A stretch of 64,000 bases of DNA from a virus. Location: positions 64,001-128,000 of IMG/VR virus record IMGVR_UViG_3300032116_000013, one strand, 5' to 3'. Of the stretch, positions 10,629 through 36,223 are shown piece after piece (the stretch's first letter is position 1; each line of letters begins with the position of its first letter). The notes beneath the pieces are model-generated. The model was given only the letters and a program-made list of their open reading frames with translations. It did not search any database and was not told where the DNA came from. A program made the position numbers and the translations under genes.

Positions 10629-10702
10629 GGGACTGAAACATTAAAGTGATGTAACGGACTTTTAATCCGTAAAAGAGGGAGCGTTACCCTCCAGTCCTAC
10701 CA
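10629..10702 (+). tRNA. tRNA-Lys(UUU), non-canonical T-loop
   Basis: acgga-ctTTTaa-tccgt; T-loop AGCGTTA. Confidence 0.9.
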
Positions 10703-12591: not shown

Positions 12592-12665
12592 GCCCCTTTA
12601 GTTCAATAGTAGAACACTAAACTGATAATTTAGAAACGGTGGAGCGTAACCACCAAGGGGCACCA
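12592..12665 (+). tRNA. tRNA-Ile(GAU), non-canonical T-loop
   Basis: ctaaa-ctGATaa-tttag; T-loop AGCGTAA. Confidence 0.9.
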
Positions 12666-12827: not shown

Positions 12828-12901
12828 GCCTCTTTAGTTCAATAGCAGAACACATTCTTGGTAAGGATGAAACGATGGAGCGTAACCATCATGAGGCACC
12901 A
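12828..12901 (+). tRNA. tRNA-Thr(GGU), non-canonical T-loop
   Basis: cattc-ttGGTaa-ggatg; T-loop AGCGTAA. Confidence 0.9.
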
Positions 12902-13164: not shown

Positions 13165-13239
13165 GCTGCTTTAACTGAGATAGATTAGTGCGAGTCTGAA
13201 GAACTCGATAGGTTGGTGCGATACCAACAGGCAGCACCA
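13165..13239 (+). tRNA. tRNA-Phe(GAA)
   Basis: cgagt-ctGAAga-actcg; T-loop TGCGATA. Confidence 0.9.
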
Positions 13240-14042: not shown

Positions 14043-14133
14043 GCTCCTGTAGTGTAATGTAGCACGACGGGACTTATAATCCCGAACTCCAGATTAGAGG
14101 TTAGTCTTGGTTCAAGTCCAAGCAGGAGCACCA
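14043..14133 (+). tRNA. tRNA(UAU) with long variable arm (nominal Ile)
   Basis: cggga-ctTATaa-tcccg; 21-nt extra arm; A73; CCA. Confidence 0.85.
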
Positions 14134-14139
14134 AGTTTT

Positions 14140-14216
14140 GCGCCTATAGCATAATTGGTTAATGCAGCAAACTCATAATTTGTTGATTCTAGGTTCAAGT
14201 CCTAGTGGGCGCACCA
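14140..14216 (+). tRNA. tRNA(CAU), probably Ile2 (lysidine type)
   Basis: gcaaa-ctCATaa-tttgt; identity inferred. Confidence 0.85.
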
Positions 14217-14513: not shown

Positions 14514-14999
14514 ATGTATGTATTTGACGGAGTCCTAGATCCAGATTTATTGCAAAAATTCAAAATAAAAATTGAAGACCATTTTATGCAAATGGTTTCT
14601 AAAAATTACAATAAATCAGATTTTTATCCTACAAGAAACATAATGATGAATTCTGATGATTTGGTTGTAAAATTAACTAAAGATTTTTTAGAATCAAAAT
14701 TAAAAATTAAATTAAACTGTTATCAATTTGAACTTCAGACTTGGCCAGTAGAAATTTTTTCATCACTGCATAAACATGATACTGGAATAAGATCGCGTGG
14801 AGATTATAATAGCATACTCTATCTAAATGATAATTTTGATGGTGGCGAATTTTATACTGAAAATGGAATTACTATAAAACCGAAAACTAATAGATTAATT
14901 TTATTTGATGGTAAAAATATAAACCATGGCGTTAAAACAGTAAGAAAAAATCACAGATACACAATGATTTTTTGGTGGGAAAACACACAATTCTATTAA
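14514..14999 (+). CDS. 2OG-Fe(II) oxygenase (prolyl-4-hydroxylase-like)
   Basis: HKHD...ILYLNDNFDGGEF...HGVKTV...RYT. Confidence 0.9.
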   Translation: MYVFDGVLDPDLLQKFKIKIEDHFMQMVSKNYNKSDFYPTRNIMMNSDDLVVKLTKDFLESKLKIKLNCYQFELQTWPVEIFSSLHKHDTGIRSRGDYNSILYLNDNFDGGEFYTENGITIKPKTNRLILFDGKNINHGVKTVRKNHRYTMIFWWENTQFY

Positions 15000-15011
15000 A
15001 GGAATATCCAT

Positions 15012-15719
15012 ATGCATCCAAGTGCACTTTTAACAGGTGAAGATTTCTTTCTGACATATGCTGCAGAACTAAATGAACCAACTGTAGTTGAAATTGGTTC
15101 TCAAAATATCAACGGTTCACTTAGAGATGTTGCTACAAATAATGTCAAGAAGTATGTTGGTCTTGATTTTGCTGAAGGCGTCGGAGTCGATATAGTCTTG
15201 ACTGATGCATACAAATATCCTCTAGAAGATAATTCATTTGATATTCTTGTAACTTCCTCTTGCCTAGAACATTCTGAAATGTTTTGGCTGTCTTTTCTAG
15301 AAGGAATGAGAATTTTAAAGGACGACGGCATCATGTACATCAATGCTCCATCAGCATGGATGATGTATCATAGGTTTCCAGTTGACTGTTGGCGATTTTG
15401 GCCAGATGCTGGAAAGGCACTAGAAACTTGGGCTAGATATAATAAAATGAATTCAATGGTTCTAGAGTCTTATGTTTGCCCCCCAGGACCTGGAGAATAT
15501 GTAGCAGATTTTGTTTGTGTTATGCTGAAAAACGCAGATTATGTGAACAAATATCCAAATAGAATGATAGACTCTTTGGTTGAATCTCATCAATTTTTTA
15601 ATGGATTCAGATTCCCTAAGAATGAAAAATTCCCGCATGGATGGGATAAACCTACTGCAGAGCGTAAGCAGGATATTCTTTTGACTAATAATAATGGAAT
15701 AGGATTCAATATCAGATAA
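15012..15719 (+). CDS. Class I SAM-dependent methyltransferase
   Basis: VVEIGS...YVGLD...DNSFDILVTSSCLEH...ILKDDGIMYINAP. Confidence 0.9.
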   Translation: MHPSALLTGEDFFLTYAAELNEPTVVEIGSQNINGSLRDVATNNVKKYVGLDFAEGVGVDIVLTDAYKYPLEDNSFDILVTSSCLEHSEMFWLSFLEGMRILKDDGIMYINAPSAWMMYHRFPVDCWRFWPDAGKALETWARYNKMNSMVLESYVCPPGPGEYVADFVCVMLKNADYVNKYPNRMIDSLVESHQFFNGFRFPKNEKFPHGWDKPTAERKQDILLTNNNGIGFNIR

Positions 15720-15902: not shown

Positions 15903-16286
15903 ATGCTTCAAAACAAATATAATATTTCAATCTGGCAAGGTTCCACGTTTAATTTGTCCATTACTGTGCAAGATAATGATGGCTCAAATTTAGACTTGAA
16001 CACCTTTTCTGCTAGAATGCAAATTCGACCAAGTTACGATTCAGGTTCAATAGCAGAATCGCTAACAAGCGCAAATGGTGAAATAACAATAACTGGTAAT
16101 CTAGGTAAACTTGATCTAGAACTTCCTGCAGAAAGAACTTCAAATATCTATGTTGATCTTTCATCTACAACAAAACCACCTAAAAATACATACGTCTATG
16201 ATCTAGAGTTAGTAGACAATTCAACAAATACAGTCACTAAACTTATGTTTGGCGATGCAGTCGTTTATGGTGAAGTCACGCGATGA
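15903..16286 (+). CDS. Virion structural/adaptor protein
   Basis: QGSTFN...ARMQIR...YVYDLEL...GEVTR family that precedes fibre genes. Confidence 0.7.
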   Translation: MLQNKYNISIWQGSTFNLSITVQDNDGSNLDLNTFSARMQIRPSYDSGSIAESLTSANGEITITGNLGKLDLELPAERTSNIYVDLSSTTKPPKNTYVYDLELVDNSTNTVTKLMFGDAVVYGEVTR

Positions 16287-18529
16287 CAATTCAAGTATCT
16301 TCTATAGTTGAAACTGGCAATACCATAACAGTTGTTGCTTCAACAACTGGTACCACAGTTACTGTCCAAGATTCAGGATATCGTGGACCTAAAGGCGCAC
16401 AAGGTACACAGGGTGTTCAAGGTACACAGGGTGAAACTGGTTCGCAAGGTACAGGTGGATCAGGTTTTACATGGAGAGGTCCATGGAACTCTTCAACAGT
16501 ATATTTAATTAATGATGCTGTAGAATATCAAAATTCGTCATATGTTGCTATTACAAATCACAGTAACGACGCGCCTCCTGGAACTAATTGGAATCTGATT
16601 GCCAAGGTTGGATCGCAAGGCACTCAGGGCGTATTTGGTGCACAAGGAACTCAAGGTCTAGATGGTCTCTTTGCTGGTCAAGGTGCTACTGGTACTCAAG
16701 GTGTACAAGGTAGAACTGGGGCGCAAGGTACTATTGGCGCCCAAGGAACAACTGGAACTCAAGGCTCAGTTGGAACTCAAGGCACATTCGGAACACAAGG
16801 AACAACTGGTTCGCAAGGCATTCAAGGAGTCCAAGGCACTACTGGAACACAAGGAACATTTGGTGTTCAAGGAACGCAAGGAACGCAAGGAACGCAAGGG
16901 TTTGATGGCATTCAAGGCGCACAAGGGTTTCAAGGAGAGCGTGGTGACTTCGGCGGCGCATCTTTCTATTATAAATTTTTAACCAAAACTGATTCCAATG
17001 ATCCTGGTCCAGGAAAGTTAAATCTAAATGCTATAAATTTTTCATCTGCCACAAATCTATCAATTGATGATATAGATAGAAACAGCACTGATATTTCTAA
17101 CTTCCTACAAACTGTTGACGATTCAACGAGTTCGATAAAAGGAACAATCAAACTTACAGAAGAAGCGAATACATTAAATTTCGTAATACTTCACATCGTT
17201 GGAACTCACACAGAGGATCAACATCACTTTGACATTCCCGTTGCATATGTCAATGGTACAACAACACCATATGCAAACAACTCTGATATTATTATATCTT
17301 TCGCCGTTACAGGCAACAAAGGTGATACTGGCGTTCAAGGAACTATAGGATCTCAAGGTCTTTCAGGAACGCAAGGATTTTTTGGAACTCAAGGATCTGT
17401 TGGCTCGCAGGGAACGCAAGGAGTCCAAGGAGAAATAGGTTCTCAAGGATTTACTGGTACTCAGGGCACTCAAGGATTGTTAGGTATTCAAGGAGTCCAA
17501 GGAGAAATAGGCTCTCAGGGTTTCACAGGAAGCCAAGGGTTTACTGGGTCTCAAGGTTTACTTGGCTCGCAGGGAACTCAGGGAACAACTGGATCTCAAG
17601 GAACAACAGGCTCTCAGGGTTTCACAGGAAGCCAAGGGTTTACTGGATCTCAAGGTCAGACTGGTTCGCAAGGAACTCAGGGTCTACTTGGTTCGCAGGG
17701 TTTAACTGGCTCACAGGGTTTAACTGGTTCAGGTTCTCAAGGTATTCAAGGTCCTTCTGGTACTGGTGGCGGATCAGCCATCACAGTGAAAGACGAAGGA
17801 ACAACGATCACGACTTCTTTGGCAAGTTTAGATTTTGTTGGGGTTGGAGTTCAAGCGACAAATGTTGGAAATGATGTTACTGTAACGATAACTGGTGGAT
17901 CAGGCTCTCAAGGCACAACAGGATCTCAAGGTGTTCAAGGTACAACAGGATCTCAAGGCTTTACTGGAAGCCAAGGGTTTACTGGGTCTCAAGGATTCAC
18001 TGGATCGCAAGGTCTAAATGGTTCTCAAGGTTTAACTGGATCACAAGGTTTAACTGGATCAGGCTCTCAAGGATTACAGGGTATTCAGGGACCATCTGGT
18101 GGTGGAGGTGGTGGAGGCGGTCTATCCACTTTCCCAGTGAGTGCAAACTCAGGATCAACTATAACTGCGAATGGTCTAAACTTCATAAATACTTCATCTA
18201 TTCTAGTTTCAGTAGGATCAGGTGAAACTGGAAATGCTAATGTATCATTTGTAGTATACAATAGCAACGTCAGTAGTAATGTTGAAAACTCATTTGAAAC
18301 AGTTAGTAAGAATCTAAGAGCATATGATGCAACACTAACTTATACTTCTGGATCATTAACCAGCATCGCATATACAGTTCCAGCCGTTGGAACAATAACA
18401 AAAACATTAAATTATACTAATGGTGTTCTGACGTCGATAGTTCTATCTGGAAGCACACCAGGTGGAATTGAATTGACTAAGACTTTGACTTATACTAATG
18501 GAATATTAACAGGGTTCAGTTACTCATAA
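16283..18529 (+). CDS. Collagen-like fibre protein
   Basis: Long Gly-X-Y runs (GSQ/GTQ/GFT) interrupted by globular segments. Confidence 0.85.
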   Translation: MTIQVSSIVETGNTITVVASTTGTTVTVQDSGYRGPKGAQGTQGVQGTQGETGSQGTGGSGFTWRGPWNSSTVYLINDAVEYQNSSYVAITNHSNDAPPGTNWNLIAKVGSQGTQGVFGAQGTQGLDGLFAGQGATGTQGVQGRTGAQGTIGAQGTTGTQGSVGTQGTFGTQGTTGSQGIQGVQGTTGTQGTFGVQGTQGTQGTQGFDGIQGAQGFQGERGDFGGASFYYKFLTKTDSNDPGPGKLNLNAINFSSATNLSIDDIDRNSTDISNFLQTVDDSTSSIKGTIKLTEEANTLNFVILHIVGTHTEDQHHFDIPVAYVNGTTTPYANNSDIIISFAVTGNKGDTGVQGTIGSQGLSGTQGFFGTQGSVGSQGTQGVQGEIGSQGFTGTQGTQGLLGIQGVQGEIGSQGFTGSQGFTGSQGLLGSQGTQGTTGSQGTTGSQGFTGSQGFTGSQGQTGSQGTQGLLGSQGLTGSQGLTGSGSQGIQGPSGTGGGSAITVKDEGTTITTSLASLDFVGVGVQATNVGNDVTVTITGGSGSQGTTGSQGVQGTTGSQGFTGSQGFTGSQGFTGSQGLNGSQGLTGSQGLTGSGSQGLQGIQGPSGGGGGGGGLSTFPVSANSGSTITANGLNFINTSSILVSVGSGETGNANVSFVVYNSNVSSNVENSFETVSKNLRAYDATLTYTSGSLTSIAYTVPAVGTITKTLNYTNGVLTSIVLSGSTPGGIELTKTLTYTNGILTGFSYS

Positions 18530-26268: not shown

Positions 26269-26343
26269 TGCGGGTTAGTTCAGTAGCAGAACGGTGGACT
26301 CATAATCCACAGGTCGGGCGTGCAATTCGCCCACCCGCTACCA
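26269..26343 (+). tRNA. tRNA(CAU), probably initiator fMet
   Basis: gtgga-ctCATaa-tccac; U1:U72 mismatch. Confidence 0.85.
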
Positions 26344-29530: not shown

Positions 29531-29587
29531 CTTGTCTCCATTGTGAGACGCAAATATGTGTCACCATTGTGTGACCGAGGAGAAAAT

Positions 29588-30928
29588 ATGAAAGTTGTAT
29601 ATACGCAGAAGTCTGCTTTTGAGATTATTCAGTTGGCTATCACAGGAAAGTTAAATCCTGATCCGATCGGTCAACGTCCGCCAACTTCGCAGGGTCATGC
29701 GAAGTACGAAGAAATCGTCAAGTCTTTGCTCTCTGGTGTTGGTATCGGCATGATCACATTGCGCGATATCTCTCAAGATGAAGAAATGCAAAAGATTTAT
29801 CCTGGCGTGCACTATCTTGTCATTGACGGTGGTCACCGTATTCGTGCGCTAGTGAAGTTCTATCAGAACAAGTTTGCTGTAAACAAGAAGAAGTTGAAGG
29901 ATCTAGATATTGATCTGAATGACTTTCAGATTGCTCTAGACATTACAACTTGCACTTCACAAGAAGCAATTGAGAAGTTTCGTAATCTGAATCAAACCAC
30001 GCCAGTAAATCCGATGGAGATGCTGATGTGCGATGACCAGTCAGAGATCTGTCGTGCTGTTCGTTCGCTCACTCGCTACTATGCTGAGTACAAGAACGAT
30101 TCGCATGAGTTGTTCGAGACTGCGTTTGATAAACATGGTGTTGAGAAGTCCAAGTTCTTTGACATGGCACCGAACCATCGTCGTAAGTGGGACGAATATG
30201 TTTTCCTTGCGTTGATCAAGTCTCATGGCAACGGCAACGTCGATGCTGGTATTCCAATTTTCTACGATGCTGTTGATCAAGAGTACAAGGGAAACAACAT
30301 TGCCACGAAAACAGTTCTAAAGAACGTTGAGCGTTTCCTCGACGACGTTCTTGGCTTTGCTTATGAGCGTAAGCCATACAAGTTGAACACCGATGTGTTC
30401 GCTGCTCTTCAGTTAGTTTGGTTTGCTCTGTATGAGAAGAACAAGAACTTCAAGATCGATGACTATCAGAAGTTCTATGAGTCATTCTTGGCTGGTTATT
30501 CTATCTTGACAGGAACTGCCGATACGAGTTATAATAACAAAACAATCAAGTATGATGGAGAAGTTTATTTGATCAAGGAATTCGTTCGCAAAAATATTAC
30601 TAACTTCTCGAACGGACCAGTACAAAAGAAGTGCGCAGAACTAATTCTTGAAGAAATGGGAGATGACATTGGTGTGATCTTCCGTGATGCCAAGAGAAGC
30701 CTGACGACTTCTGAGCGCGATCAGAAACTTGCGCTTCAGGGCTTCAAGTGTGCTATCGACGGTGAGCCGCTGCGTCTTGAGGACTCTGTATGGGGTCACG
30801 ATACTGCTTGGGCTCACGGTGGTGAGTTGATGGATGGTGCTGTGATACGCAAGACTCACAACCGCGATATGGGTACGACAACTCTTGACGAGTATCGTAT
30901 GATTCTGAATCTGAGGAAGAACAAATGA
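29588..30928 (+). CDS. DUF262/ParB-like + C-terminal HNH protein (GmrSD-like)
   Basis: VIDGGHRIRAL, FRNLNQ, CAIDG...GHDTAWAHGG...HN; start at ATG 29588. Confidence 0.75.
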   Translation: MKVVYTQKSAFEIIQLAITGKLNPDPIGQRPPTSQGHAKYEEIVKSLLSGVGIGMITLRDISQDEEMQKIYPGVHYLVIDGGHRIRALVKFYQNKFAVNKKKLKDLDIDLNDFQIALDITTCTSQEAIEKFRNLNQTTPVNPMEMLMCDDQSEICRAVRSLTRYYAEYKNDSHELFETAFDKHGVEKSKFFDMAPNHRRKWDEYVFLALIKSHGNGNVDAGIPIFYDAVDQEYKGNNIATKTVLKNVERFLDDVLGFAYERKPYKLNTDVFAALQLVWFALYEKNKNFKIDDYQKFYESFLAGYSILTGTADTSYNNKTIKYDGEVYLIKEFVRKNITNFSNGPVQKKCAELILEEMGDDIGVIFRDAKRSLTTSERDQKLALQGFKCAIDGEPLRLEDSVWGHDTAWAHGGELMDGAVIRKTHNRDMGTTTLDEYRMILNLRKNK

Positions 30929-32881: not shown

Positions 32882-33634
32882 TTGAGCAAGAAAAAAGGTT
32901 CTAACACTGTAATAGAATTTACAGAAACTACAGAAAAGAAACCTGCTCGAATCAAGGCAGCAGAACTAAAGAAGTTTGATCCTCTAACAGAGAATCAATC
33001 TAAATTTTTCGAAGCCTACAAACGTGGTGACTATTTCGTAATGCTTTGCGGTTCAGCGGGAACTGGTAAGTCATTCATTGCAACATACAAAGCACTAGAA
33101 GAAGTTCTAGATAAATCATCATCCTTTCACAGAGTTGTCATTGTACGCTCCGCAGTGCAGTCAAGAGATCTTGGCTTCACACCTGGATCGGTTGAAGAAA
33201 AGATGAGTCTCTATGAACAACCATACATGCAAATTTGTCACACGCTATTCGGTCGTCGTGACGCCTATGAAGCACTGAAAGAATGCGGTCGTATTGAATT
33301 CATTTCTACAAGTTTCATTCGCGGTATGAGTTTCGACGATGCCGTTATTATTGTAGACGAATGTCAAAACATGACGTTCGAAGAATTGTCTACAATTATG
33401 ACAAGAGTTGGCTATCGTTCCAAGATTATTTTCTGTGGTGATTACAAGCAAACGGATCTATACAGAAATAACAAGGATAAGAGTGGACTCAAAAAGTTCC
33501 ATGAAATTGCTAAAATGATGCAGTCGTTCACCAATATTGAGTTTACAACGGATGATATTGTGCGCTCAAGTATTGTAAAAGACTTCTTGATTGCGGTTGA
33601 GAGATACGAAAAATTGTCAGAAAATAATACTTGA
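32882..33634 (+). CDS. phoH: PhoH-family ATPase
   Basis: GSAGTGKS, FIRGMSF, IVDECQN, FCGDYKQTD, DIVRS. Confidence 0.95.
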   Translation: MSKKKGSNTVIEFTETTEKKPARIKAAELKKFDPLTENQSKFFEAYKRGDYFVMLCGSAGTGKSFIATYKALEEVLDKSSSFHRVVIVRSAVQSRDLGFTPGSVEEKMSLYEQPYMQICHTLFGRRDAYEALKECGRIEFISTSFIRGMSFDDAVIIVDECQNMTFEELSTIMTRVGYRSKIIFCGDYKQTDLYRNNKDKSGLKKFHEIAKMMQSFTNIEFTTDDIVRSSIVKDFLIAVERYEKLSENNT

Positions 33635-35291: not shown

Positions 35292-35861
35292 ATGGATTAT
35301 TTTGATATGGATGATGTAGCGTTACCGACAGTTCTCCCAGCAGTTGTGTTCAAGACACGAGTGCGCGATGAGTCTGTTGGCGGACCGAACCCATACCGAT
35401 GGCAGGATGTATCATCGTATGACTATTTCGGTGGCAAGCGTGTTGTAATTTTTTCACTTCCTGGTGCATTCACACCGACTTGTTCGACAATGCAACTTCC
35501 TGGCTTTGAAGAAAAGTATGACGTGTTTCGTATGTTTGGAATTGATGAAATCTACTGCGTGTCAGTGAACGATGCATTTGTGATGAATGCTTGGGCGAAG
35601 GCTCAGAACATTCAGAACGTAAAGGTCATTCCTGACGGTAGTGAGAAATTCACACGTGCGATGCGCATGCTTGTTGATAAGGACAACCTTGGGTTTGGAT
35701 TCCGTTCATGGCGTTATGCGGTTGTTGCCAACAACGGCACCATTGAGAAGTGGTTCGTTGAGCCAGGCAAGGAGCATAACTGTGCGACTGATCCGTATGG
35801 TGAGACTTCGCCTGAGAATATTTTGACTTATTTGAGGTCAGAACATTTGAAGACACTTTGA
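35292..35861 (+). CDS. Peroxiredoxin (Prx5-like)
   Basis: FSLPGAFTPTCS; CVSVNDAFVM; RSWRYA. Confidence 0.95.
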   Translation: MDYFDMDDVALPTVLPAVVFKTRVRDESVGGPNPYRWQDVSSYDYFGGKRVVIFSLPGAFTPTCSTMQLPGFEEKYDVFRMFGIDEIYCVSVNDAFVMNAWAKAQNIQNVKVIPDGSEKFTRAMRMLVDKDNLGFGFRSWRYAVVANNGTIEKWFVEPGKEHNCATDPYGETSPENILTYLRSEHLKTL

Positions 35862-35871
35862 ATAAATAAGA

Positions 35872-36193
35872 ACTAATGGTTGTAAACTGACGACTAAAGG
35901 TGTTTCGGACGTGGGTTCGACTCCCACCTTCTCCACCAAAAGCATACTCGCCATCCCTCTACGATGGTCTCGCAAAGTCTTCCTAGGAGATGAGATAGTT
36001 GCAAGTAGTATGCTCCTGATGGGGAAGAAATGGCTTCGACGGGGCAAGTAATAAACCGACAGCAACCAGTGAGGCGACTGACTTAATCAGCGCAAAACTA
36101 GTAAACGCAAACGATGATGTTTACGACATGGCTCTTGCTGCTTAATAGCAGTATAAGAATACCAGAGTTGACCACTTGGTAACAGAAAGGTCA
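35872..36193 (+). ncRNA. ssrA: Circularly permuted (two-piece) tmRNA, tag ANDDVYDMALAA
   Basis: T-arm+CCA (ends 35938) precedes 5' ggggaag (36021); G3-U70; tag 36107-36145; 5' boundary approximate. Confidence 0.9.
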
Positions 36194-36196
36194 GGA

Positions 36197-36223
36197 GGGT
36201 GGGGTAACACCCACCCTTTTTTT
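36197..36223 (+). terminator. Rho-independent terminator
   Basis: gggtggg-gtaaca-cccaccc-T7. Confidence 0.9.

Follow-up and report, generated by a model that had tools for sequence, protein, structure and literature searches.

Bacteria are normally unable to decode one sense codon, AUA, without a dedicated and essential modification enzyme, TilS. Its usual reader, tRNA-Ile2(CAU), needs lysidine both for isoleucine identity and for decoding, and the exceptions to TilS-dependent AUA decoding known to us required a co-evolved isoleucyl-tRNA synthetase (IleRS). The subject of this work is a tRNA gene with a UAU anticodon, located at positions 14043-14133 (+) of a 64,000-nt stretch of phage DNA (the window), which corresponds to bases 64001-128000 of a complete IMG/VR virus record of 197,424 bp (IMGVR_UViG_3300032116_000013). 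This tRNA would share codon and isotype with tRNA-Ile2(CAU) while needing lysidine for neither function, and it belongs to a widespread family of five-arm tRNA-Ile(UAU) genes that we have not found described as such. The family is set apart by a second, anticodon-like hairpin (arm 2), which follows the decoding anticodon arm (arm 1) and displays the trinucleotide GAU.

Functionally, the closest analogues of this tRNA are the four-arm tRNA-Ile(UAU) molecules of Mycoplasma and lactobacilli, which do without TilS. The class I tRNA-Ile(UAU) of Mycoplasma mobile (PMC3575796) likewise has A73 and a canonical UAU loop with A37 and reads AUA without lysidine, and the same traits are attributed to the tRNA-Ile(UAU) of lactic acid bacteria where Tomikawa 2018 and Uesugi 2022 are cited in PMC9976931. 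These tRNAs owe their acceptance to a change in the synthetase: the M. mobile IleRS needed an arginine (Arg865) to accept tRNA-Ile(UAU), a tRNA that the E. coli IleRS charges poorly and that misreads AUG on E. coli ribosomes (PMC3575796). The window tRNA differs from the M. mobile type in its added GAU hairpin and in that the phage encodes no class Ia synthetase, nor any TilS-like protein.

Among published sequences, the nearest are probably the allo-tRNA(UAU) of Mukai et al. 2017 (PMC5389517), an abundant group with five-stem junctions found in bacteria, phages and metagenomes, which also combines a UAU anticodon with a long extra arm. To count as an allo-tRNA, a molecule has acceptor/T stems of 8/4 or 9/3, a long D stem resembling that of selenocysteine tRNA and capped by a tetraloop, and G or U at position 73; serine is the presumed amino acid (PMC5389517). 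The window tRNA falls outside this definition because it has a 7/5 fold, a class-I D arm (4-bp stem, 6-nt loop) and A73; an 8/4 reading through U8.G65 is conceivable, but not needed. Six UAU-to-CUA derivatives of allo-tRNAs inserted no serine, and two of them were lethal (PMC5389517), results that would fit a non-serine identity. Neither a GAU loop nor an isoleucine reading is mentioned in the main text of Mukai et al. 2017.

A UAU anticodon with a long extra arm is also found in the nematode nev-tRNA(UAU) (Hamashima et al. 2012, PMC3333845; 2015, PMC4300185), which is reported to be a eukaryotic nuclear, tRNA-Leu-derived molecule with a Leu-type variable arm, leucylated in vitro and with no GAU loop reported. 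The tRNA described here is instead a phage gene with an apparent isoleucine anticodon-arm mimic and a body nearest to an Ile2-type tRNA, in a genome where ATA behaves as an isoleucine codon. Hairpins that imitate an anticodon outside the usual tRNA context are known from the E. coli thrS operator and the yeast AspRS mRNA, where they are recognized by the anticodon-binding domain of the synthetase; synthetases bind such isolated mimics in mRNAs, and a mimic swap turns control from ThrRS to MetRS (PMC9976931). Those mimics are regulatory mRNA elements, whereas here the putative mimic lies inside a tRNA that has a different working anticodon.

The sequence at 14043-14133 is almost certainly, judging by its pairing and by the covariation of its relatives, a real five-arm tRNA. 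Rfam model RF00005 matches it with 54.7 bits (E=3e-11, above the 29-bit gathering score) and places an 18-nt insertion in the variable region. Its parts are as follows.

14043-14133 (+): whole five-arm tRNA(UAU), 91 nt, CCA encoded (ARAGORN tRNA-Ile(tat), Rfam RF00005, family covariation)
14043-14049 (+): acceptor 5' strand GCTCCTG, pairing with 14123-14129 and including C4-G69 and C5-G68 (sequence)
14052-14065 (+): D arm of class-I type, 4-bp stem GTGT/GCAC and 6-nt loop AATGTA (sequence)
14068-14084 (+): arm 1, the decoding anticodon arm CGGGA/CTTATAA/TCCCG, with canonical C32, U33, A37 and A38 (ARAGORN, Rfam, sequence)
14085-14086 (+): inter-arm linker AA, 0-6 nt and unconserved across the family (family comparison)
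14087-14099 (+): arm 2, anticodon-like hairpin CTC/CAGATTA/GAG (sequence, folding, family covariation)
14100-14105 (+): 3' linker GTTAGT, equivalent to a class-I variable loop 44-48, its last base being U48 opposite A15
14106-14122 (+): T arm CTTGG/TTCAAGT/CCAAG (sequence, Rfam, family covariation)
14123-14133 (+): acceptor 3' strand CAGGAGC, A73 (14130) and CCA (14131-14133) (sequence)

The anticodon TAT occupies 14075-14077 within the loop CTTATAA (14073-14079), and 21 nt (14085-14105) separate the anticodon stem from the T stem; the UAU anticodon, the 21-nt extra region and A73, all reported in a first-pass annotation of this DNA, are borne out by direct reading of the sequence. In arm 2, GAU (14092-14094) takes up positions 3-5 of the 7-nt loop, and the stem contains the equivalents of C31-G39 and C29-G41. 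The D-loop position corresponding to G18 is U in the window tRNA and G in a relative (L001). The five-arm cloverleaf is obtained once the four standard stems are imposed, at -28.9 kcal/mol against -30.4 for the unconstrained minimum free energy fold. The latter pairs AGAUU of loop 2 with AAUCU from the linker and the start of the T stem, a pairing for which one apparent compensatory case was seen (L110) and which we treat as due to chance because it is absent from most subfamilies. Kissing of loop 1 with loop 2 and a role of loop 2 as a codon mimic (AUU for Ile, GAU for Asp) were dropped after a by-eye look revealed no conserved complement.

The family was delimited with two scans that constrain different parts of the molecule. 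The first, which required CTTATAA followed by 22-34 nt and a T-loop and left the extra arm unconstrained, returned at least 119 loci; among the matches listed there were at least 71 distinct long-arm UAU tRNAs, and about 62 of these 71 presented GAU at positions 3-5 of a 7-nt loop. The commonest loop in this set was CAGAUUA, and CUGAUAA, CUGAUUA, UAGAUAG, UAGAUCG and CCGAUUA were also found. The second scan required CAGATTA and a T-loop, leaving loop 1 unconstrained, and yielded 108 tRNAs, 104 of them with UAU in the canonical loop; 8 of 12 sites that ARAGORN had missed were likewise UAU. In 596 Gb of cellular genomes the matches to this second pattern were mostly due to chance, with 25 lying within tRNAs; 17 of the 25 were UAU five-arm tRNAs, and the remaining 8 had the motif in a different context. 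The cellular UAU five-arm tRNAs come from Acidobacteriota, Rhodobacteraceae and others, often in dense tRNA arrays, and the acidobacterial ones probably overlap the allo-tRNA(UAU) set. Both scans together gave at least 122 distinct members, the parser having demanded GAU in loop 2. The window tRNA displays the features by which members are recognized, namely a U33/UAU/R37 loop, a GAU hairpin of 3-5 bp, a linker of 5-6 nt, the 15:48 pair and A73.

No description of a GAU loop in an extra arm was found in the literature searched, and BLAST of the window tRNA against 50,697 phage records returned no match. For other family members the same records held a full-length match only in Synechococcus phage S-SRM01, together with partial matches to T5-like tRNA-Ile(GAU). 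The S-SRM01 copy (MW015081.1, ~32943-33032; L410 298-387) is a five-arm tRNA(UAU) with a CAGATTA arm, unannotated in its record, and this cultured cyanophage is a tractable experimental system.

Structural conservation was assessed on 59 members with canonical D arms plus the window tRNA. The five helices are paired in 96.3% of cells, as opposed to 64% when shuffled and 36-48% with slid partners; double compensatory changes occur in 4/4 pairs of the extra arm and acceptor covariation in 7/7 pairs, and RNAalifold independently predicted five identical helices. Across the 122 members, the linker 3' of arm 2 measures 5 nt in 85 and 6 nt in 33, and its last base covaries with position 15 as a 15:48 Levitt pair (A-U in 40, G-C in 10). 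The deduced architecture runs from the D stem through N26, arm 1, a linker of 0-6 nt, arm 2 and a class-I-like 44-48 loop to the T stem, with some subfamilies having tetraloop D arms and a 7-bp arm 1. A73 is present in 120 of 121 members. A G1.U72 wobble atop the acceptor is found in 78 of 121 (64%), the window copy having G1-C72; among phage tRNAs this wobble is not Ile-specific.

Because the linker and the 15:48 pair are class-I-like, the two hairpins are best read as tandem anticodon arms and not as the variable arm of a Leu, Ser or Tyr tRNA. Class II tRNAs also have five helices and a hairpin between the anticodon and T arms, but they leave 1-3 nt after that hairpin and combine a variable loop with a long D loop, whereas in the five-arm UAU tRNA the linker is class-I-like at 5-6 nt, the 7-nt GAU loop is fixed and the D loop is short. 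The Leu, Ser and Tyr tRNAs of the phage itself also differ from it in architecture. The first-pass annotation had assigned this tRNA to class II, an assignment refuted by the 6-nt 3' linker, the fixed 7-nt loop and the 6-nt D loop; what it had taken for a long variable arm is a 3-bp stem closed by a GAU loop and followed by a linker that takes part in 15:48 covariation.

The two loops are conserved in different ways. Loop 1 follows Y32 U33 U34 A35 U36 A37 N38 in the 122 members, with A37 in 98%, and in the second scan, where this was not required, it still reads Y32 U33 U34 A35 U36 R37. Loop 2, which is CAGATTA in 92 of the 122, has Y32, A33 (94%), G34 A35 U36, U37 (86%) and A38 (88%), and its stem carries C31-G39 in 82% of members and C29-G41 in 87%, the latter pair being found in just 25% of first arms. 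As a control, the class I tRNA-Ile(GAU) genes from the family loci have C29-G41 in 62% of cases, compared with 8-22% in the four other isotypes checked, and among them A37 is kept in 39/39 distinct phage genes while C33 occurs in 6/39. Arm 2 thus has the Ile-specific stem pair and not the features required for decoding. An example of C33 in place of the near-universal U33 is the tRNA-Ile(GAU) loop CCGATAA of T5-like phages such as Escherichia phage EscoHU1 (L409 373-448). Extra hairpins in the variable region are themselves frequent in phage class I tRNAs, and in a survey of loci L002-L198 (e.g. L176, L062, L087, L112, L136, L162) we saw them in Asn, Thr, Trp, Gly, Glu, Pro, Cys, Lys, Gln and Met isotypes; none of those extra arms held a copy of the tRNA's own anticodon, GNRA or UUCG-type tetraloops being used instead.

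The window tRNA was also set against known identity elements. In E. coli the bacterial isoleucine set comprises A73, C4-G69, U12-A23, C29-G41, G or lysidine at 34, A35, U36, t6A37 (N6-threonylcarbamoyladenosine) and A38 (PMC9976931). The window tRNA has A73 and C4-G69 and lacks U12-A23, since its D stem GTGT/GCAC places G12-C23 there. Arm 1 supplies A35, U36, A37 and A38 and deviates at U34 and G29-C41; arm 2 supplies G34, A35, U36, A38 and C29-G41 and deviates at U37. On this reading, the isoleucine set of the anticodon arm is split over the two arms. Bacterial leucine identity, in turn, relies on A73, tertiary interactions and a large variable region (PMC9976931); A73 is present, and the D loop AATGTA differs from the D loops of the phage Leu tRNAs. 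Serine identity (G73 and a long variable-arm stem) fails on A73 and on the 3-bp stem. In its acceptor and T arm, the window tRNA is identical at 27 of 34 positions to the adjacent CAU tRNA, as opposed to 14-23 of 34 for the phage Leu, Ser and Tyr tRNAs. Two other tRNAs of the same array are relevant here.

12592-12665 (+): tRNA-Ile(GAU), ordinary class I (ARAGORN, Rfam)
14140-14216 (+): CAU tRNA, probably lysidine-type tRNA-Ile2 (determinant pairs, Plastid-ycf2 match, body identity)

The sequence of the CAU tRNA contains the pairs C4-G69, C5-G68 and G27.U43, which we take to be the E. coli TilS determinants. Among CAU tRNAs, it is also the only one with a strong antisense match to the Rfam model Plastid-ycf2 (52.9 bits); on our view that this model is the antisense counterpart of plastid trnI-CAU, the tRNA is probably a lysidine-type tRNA-Ile2. 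The first-pass annotation had named both neighbours: the tRNA-Ile(GAU) is present as stated, and its lysidine-type CAU tRNA is now probable on the evidence just given.

Codon usage provides a separate view of which amino acid AUA specifies. When the phage is aligned with its syntenic relative G001, 188 ATA codons face 59 ATA, 36 ATT, 6 ATC and 11 leucine codons. The leucine share is 6% at ATA and 5-6% at ATT/ATC, while TTA, CTA and TTG face leucine in 62-76% of cases. In deep columns of structural genes (at least 8 homologues, 80 loci around the capsid gene), 43 of 68 ATA positions are Ile-majority and 7 of 68 Leu-majority. If homologue cells that are themselves ATA are excluded, so as to make the test non-circular, ATA columns contain 43% I, 16% V, 15.5% L and 12% M, and columns at leucine codons contain 75-79% L and 2.5-4.7% I. 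Conversely, ATA in the homologues makes up 3.8-5.2% of ATT/ATC columns and 0.4-1.3% of leucine columns. ATA accounts for 20% of the isoleucine codons of the phage, or 12.3 per 1000 codons. The first-pass annotation had suggested that the tRNA might be charged with leucine and miscode AUA, and had proposed to look for ATA in leucine columns; that reading is left unsupported because ATA exchanges with ATT/ATC and occupies isoleucine columns, and the class-I D arm and the body nearest to the CAU tRNA also speak against it. A low level of leucine ambiguity at AUA would be compatible with these figures. What stands of the earlier interpretation is that this UAU tRNA is unusual and has Ile(GAU) and a probable Ile2(CAU) as neighbours, and that independence from TilS is a reasonable proposal for it. 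We infer isoleucine charging, and we consider it very probable that the UAU tRNA is an isoleucine-accepting, TilS-independent decoder of AUA.

The mechanism we propose assigns a different task to each arm. Arm 1, with UAU in a canonical loop, would read AUA without lysidine, so that no host TilS is used. Arm 2, inserted between arm 1 and a normal variable loop of 5-6 nt, copies the anticodon arm of tRNA-Ile(GAU) in G34 A35 U36, A38, C29-G41 and C31-G39. Given that ordinary bacterial IleRS charges UAU tRNAs poorly, arm 2 is proposed as the IleRS determinant: the host enzyme would bind or read it as the anticodon while the ribosome reads arm 1, and arm 2 should not itself decode because it mostly has A33 and U37, which would keep it from that role. 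IleRS might gain access to arm 2 as a protruding arm, or through an alternative stacking in which arm 2, and not arm 1, lies under the D stem. Since arm 1 has a canonical 5' junction (N26) and arm 2 a canonical 3' junction (44-48), the hairpins are topologically symmetric and either could stack there, which makes such a conformational alternative conceivable.

We give this proposal graded credence. That the molecule is a five-arm, AUA-reading isoleucine tRNA in which arm 2 serves as the IleRS anticodon determinant has, in our judgement, a little under an even chance; that the IleRS identity missing with U34 is provided by the GAU arm seems plausible but rather doubtful; and reading of arm 2 by IleRS is speculative. 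More tentative is the general notion that identity and decoding are physically split between two arms, possibly through an alternative L-shape, so that any host would be usable without lysidine or an adapted synthetase. If true, such a portable tRNA, with an "isoleucine label" of its own kept in a spare hairpin, would represent a third solution to AUA decoding; we know of no earlier natural example in which an anticodon identity element has been transferred to an additional arm. Both the abundance of long-arm UAU tRNAs in phage and soil metagenomes and the failure of treating them as serine tRNAs would then be explained, and synthetic biology would gain a design principle for orthogonal or anticodon-independent charging. 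In annotation, tRNA-Ile(UAU) is the fitting name for these genes, in place of Leu-like or pseudo-tRNA.

Several points weigh against IleRS recognition of arm 2. The anticodon-binding site of IleRS is single and lies ~70 A from the active site, so some rearrangement should be needed for a protruding side arm to get there. The consensus itself is imperfect as a mimic: arm 2 lacks A37, with U37 in 86% of members, although t6A37 is a strong determinant for bacterial-type IleRS (PMC9976931), and the window copy has only 3 Watson-Crick pairs. In part, GAU is invariant because the second scan and the parser demanded it, and about 9 of the 71 long-arm UAU tRNAs among the matches listed for the first scan have no GAU loop. 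TilS is present in 5/5 of the cellular carriers checked, which rules out its replacement by the five-arm tRNA in them, and together with the probable Ile2(CAU) of the phage this makes the UAU tRNA an accessory and not a replacement. Finally, the six amber suppressors derived from allo-tRNA(UAU), which inserted no serine, led their authors to suggest a non-translational role (PMC5389517).

The alternative that best withstands the evidence also takes the tRNA as an isoleucine-accepting AUA decoder, with a GAU hairpin that serves something other than IleRS recognition; it might be a handle by which a modification enzyme acts on arm 1, a means of tuning flexibility against AUG misreading, an aid to folding stability, or an arm retained after fusion of two tRNA-Ile genes. 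We regard this as unlikely on balance but deserving of serious consideration. The evidence for isoleucine identity and for decoding by arm 1 fits it equally well, the geometric objection to a side arm contacting IleRS speaks in its favour, and the A33 and U37 of arm 2, unlike the invariant A37 of genuine Ile(GAU) loops, weaken a pure IleRS mimic; the AUG misreading shown by tRNA-Ile(UAU) (PMC3575796) is, moreover, a fidelity problem that an altered body could address. Against this, the enrichment of C29-G41 points specifically to IleRS, and a purely structural arm would not fix G-A-U while its stem covaries, other phage tRNAs using tetraloops in such arms. Descent from a GAU tRNA would fit one case in which arm 2, linker and T arm align without gaps to the anticodon arm, variable loop and T arm of a T5-like class I tRNA-Ile(GAU), but with the anticodons masked the two halves (start to arm 1; arm 2 to end) showed no convincing enrichment for class I GAU, CAU or UAU relatives. 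A search for a conserved partner gene in the vicinity also came up empty: all-against-all clustering of open reading frames in the 122 loci gave no family in more than 15 loci, and the top clusters were HNH and GIY-YIG homing endonucleases, an RNase H-like protein, a phosphoesterase and a sugar epimerase. With no TilS or class Ia synthetase in the phage and no recurrent partner gene, any partner should be a host factor.

That the molecule is not a translational adaptor at all, acting instead as a decoy or regulator that binds IleRS or as a tRNA-like element of mobile DNA, strikes us as improbable. In the view put forward by Mukai et al. 2017 (PMC5389517), the majority of allo-tRNA(UAU) may have no part in translation, the cellular copies sit in tRNA arrays of genomes already equipped with TilS, and a GAU hairpin could titrate IleRS. 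Yet nothing is missing or out of covariation in the acceptor stem, T arm, A73, CCA or canonical anticodon loop, and the gene is part of an operon of co-oriented tRNAs, the next of which is 6 nt away. Identity to the tRNA block of G001 is 96.5%, where the flanking matched stretches are mostly 68-92% identical at the nucleotide level, typically 70-80%, and the UAU tRNA differs from its relative's copy at a single D-loop base; such conservation between diverged phages, and the ATA usage reported above, argue against a non-adaptor.

Very improbable, too, is a two-headed tRNA in which arm 2 decodes, reading AUY, or AUY plus AUA through alternative stacking. The canonical 5-nt variable loop with its 15:48 pair after arm 2 marks the ancestral position of an anticodon arm on the 3' side, the loop is canonical throughout (CUGAUAA or CUGAUUA) in a few members, and C33 is tolerated in 6/39 phage tRNA-Ile(GAU) that are presumably functional. 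In the great majority, A33 and U37 would cripple the U-turn and purine-37 stacking, A37 being kept in every genuine Ile(GAU) loop; the arm 2 stem has just 3-5 bp, the phage already encodes a separate tRNA-Ile(GAU), and loop 1 retains all the features of a decoder. Charging by leucyl- or seryl-tRNA synthetase through A73 and the long arm, with AUA partly read as Leu or Ser, is extremely unlikely, for even though both elements are present, match part of the leucine identity given above and recall the leucylation of the nematode variable-arm tRNA(UAU) in vitro (PMC3333845 and PMC4300185), leucine makes up only 6% (G001) or 15.5% (deep columns) at ATA as opposed to 75-79% at true leucine codons, the class-I D arm with its 6-nt loop is unlike that of the phage Leu tRNAs, the 6-nt 3' linker, the displayed isoleucine anticodon and the Ile2-like body also count against it, and so, for serine, do A73 in place of G73 and the six related UAU-to-CUA constructs (PMC5389517).

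Its baseplate proteins gp6 and gp7 and its gp23 capsid protein assign the phage itself to the T4-like marine or freshwater myoviruses, and its gp6 shares 35-38% identity with the gp6 of cyanophages, pelagiphages and Methylophilales phages. ARAGORN finds 26 tRNAs and one permuted transfer-messenger RNA (tmRNA) in the window, and Rfam adds 3 tRNAs (10629-10699, 12828-12898 and 13165-13236, all +) whose anticodon loops are read as Lys-UUU, Thr-GGU and Phe-GAA, for an array of ~29 tRNAs in which nearly every amino acid is covered. Several array tRNAs, those starting at 10629, 12592, 12828, 12907, 13165, 13726 and 26269, have non-canonical T loops (for example AGCGTAA, TGCGATA or ATCGTTA versus TTCRANT), and in the tRNA-Ile(GAU) at 12592 the D loop AATAGTA also lacks GG; these odd loops suggest a co-varied, unusual elbow. 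The CAU tRNA at 26269-26343 (+), isolated outside the main array, has a U1/U72 mismatch atop the acceptor stem and may be an initiator-type tRNA.

The permuted (two-piece) tmRNA lies at 35833-36220 (+), with 145.9 bits for Rfam tmRNA_permuted and 129.9 bits for beta_tmRNA, and ARAGORN gives its tag peptide as ANDDVYDMALAA; it may hint at a betaproteobacterial host, such as a member of the Methylophilales. Within the tRNA island, between tRNA-Gly(UCC) and tRNA-Gly(GCC), are a 2OG-Fe(II) oxygenase (14514-14999, +) and a methyltransferase (15012-15719, +), and the island is adjoined by a 748-aa protein with collagen triple-helix repeats and a CBM5/12-like domain (16283-18529, +). Large collagen-like repeat families elsewhere in the genome (G000, ~138-141 kb and 160-163 kb) cross-match those of G001. 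Further downstream, the protein encoded at 29543-30928 (+) has a weak GmrSD_N match.

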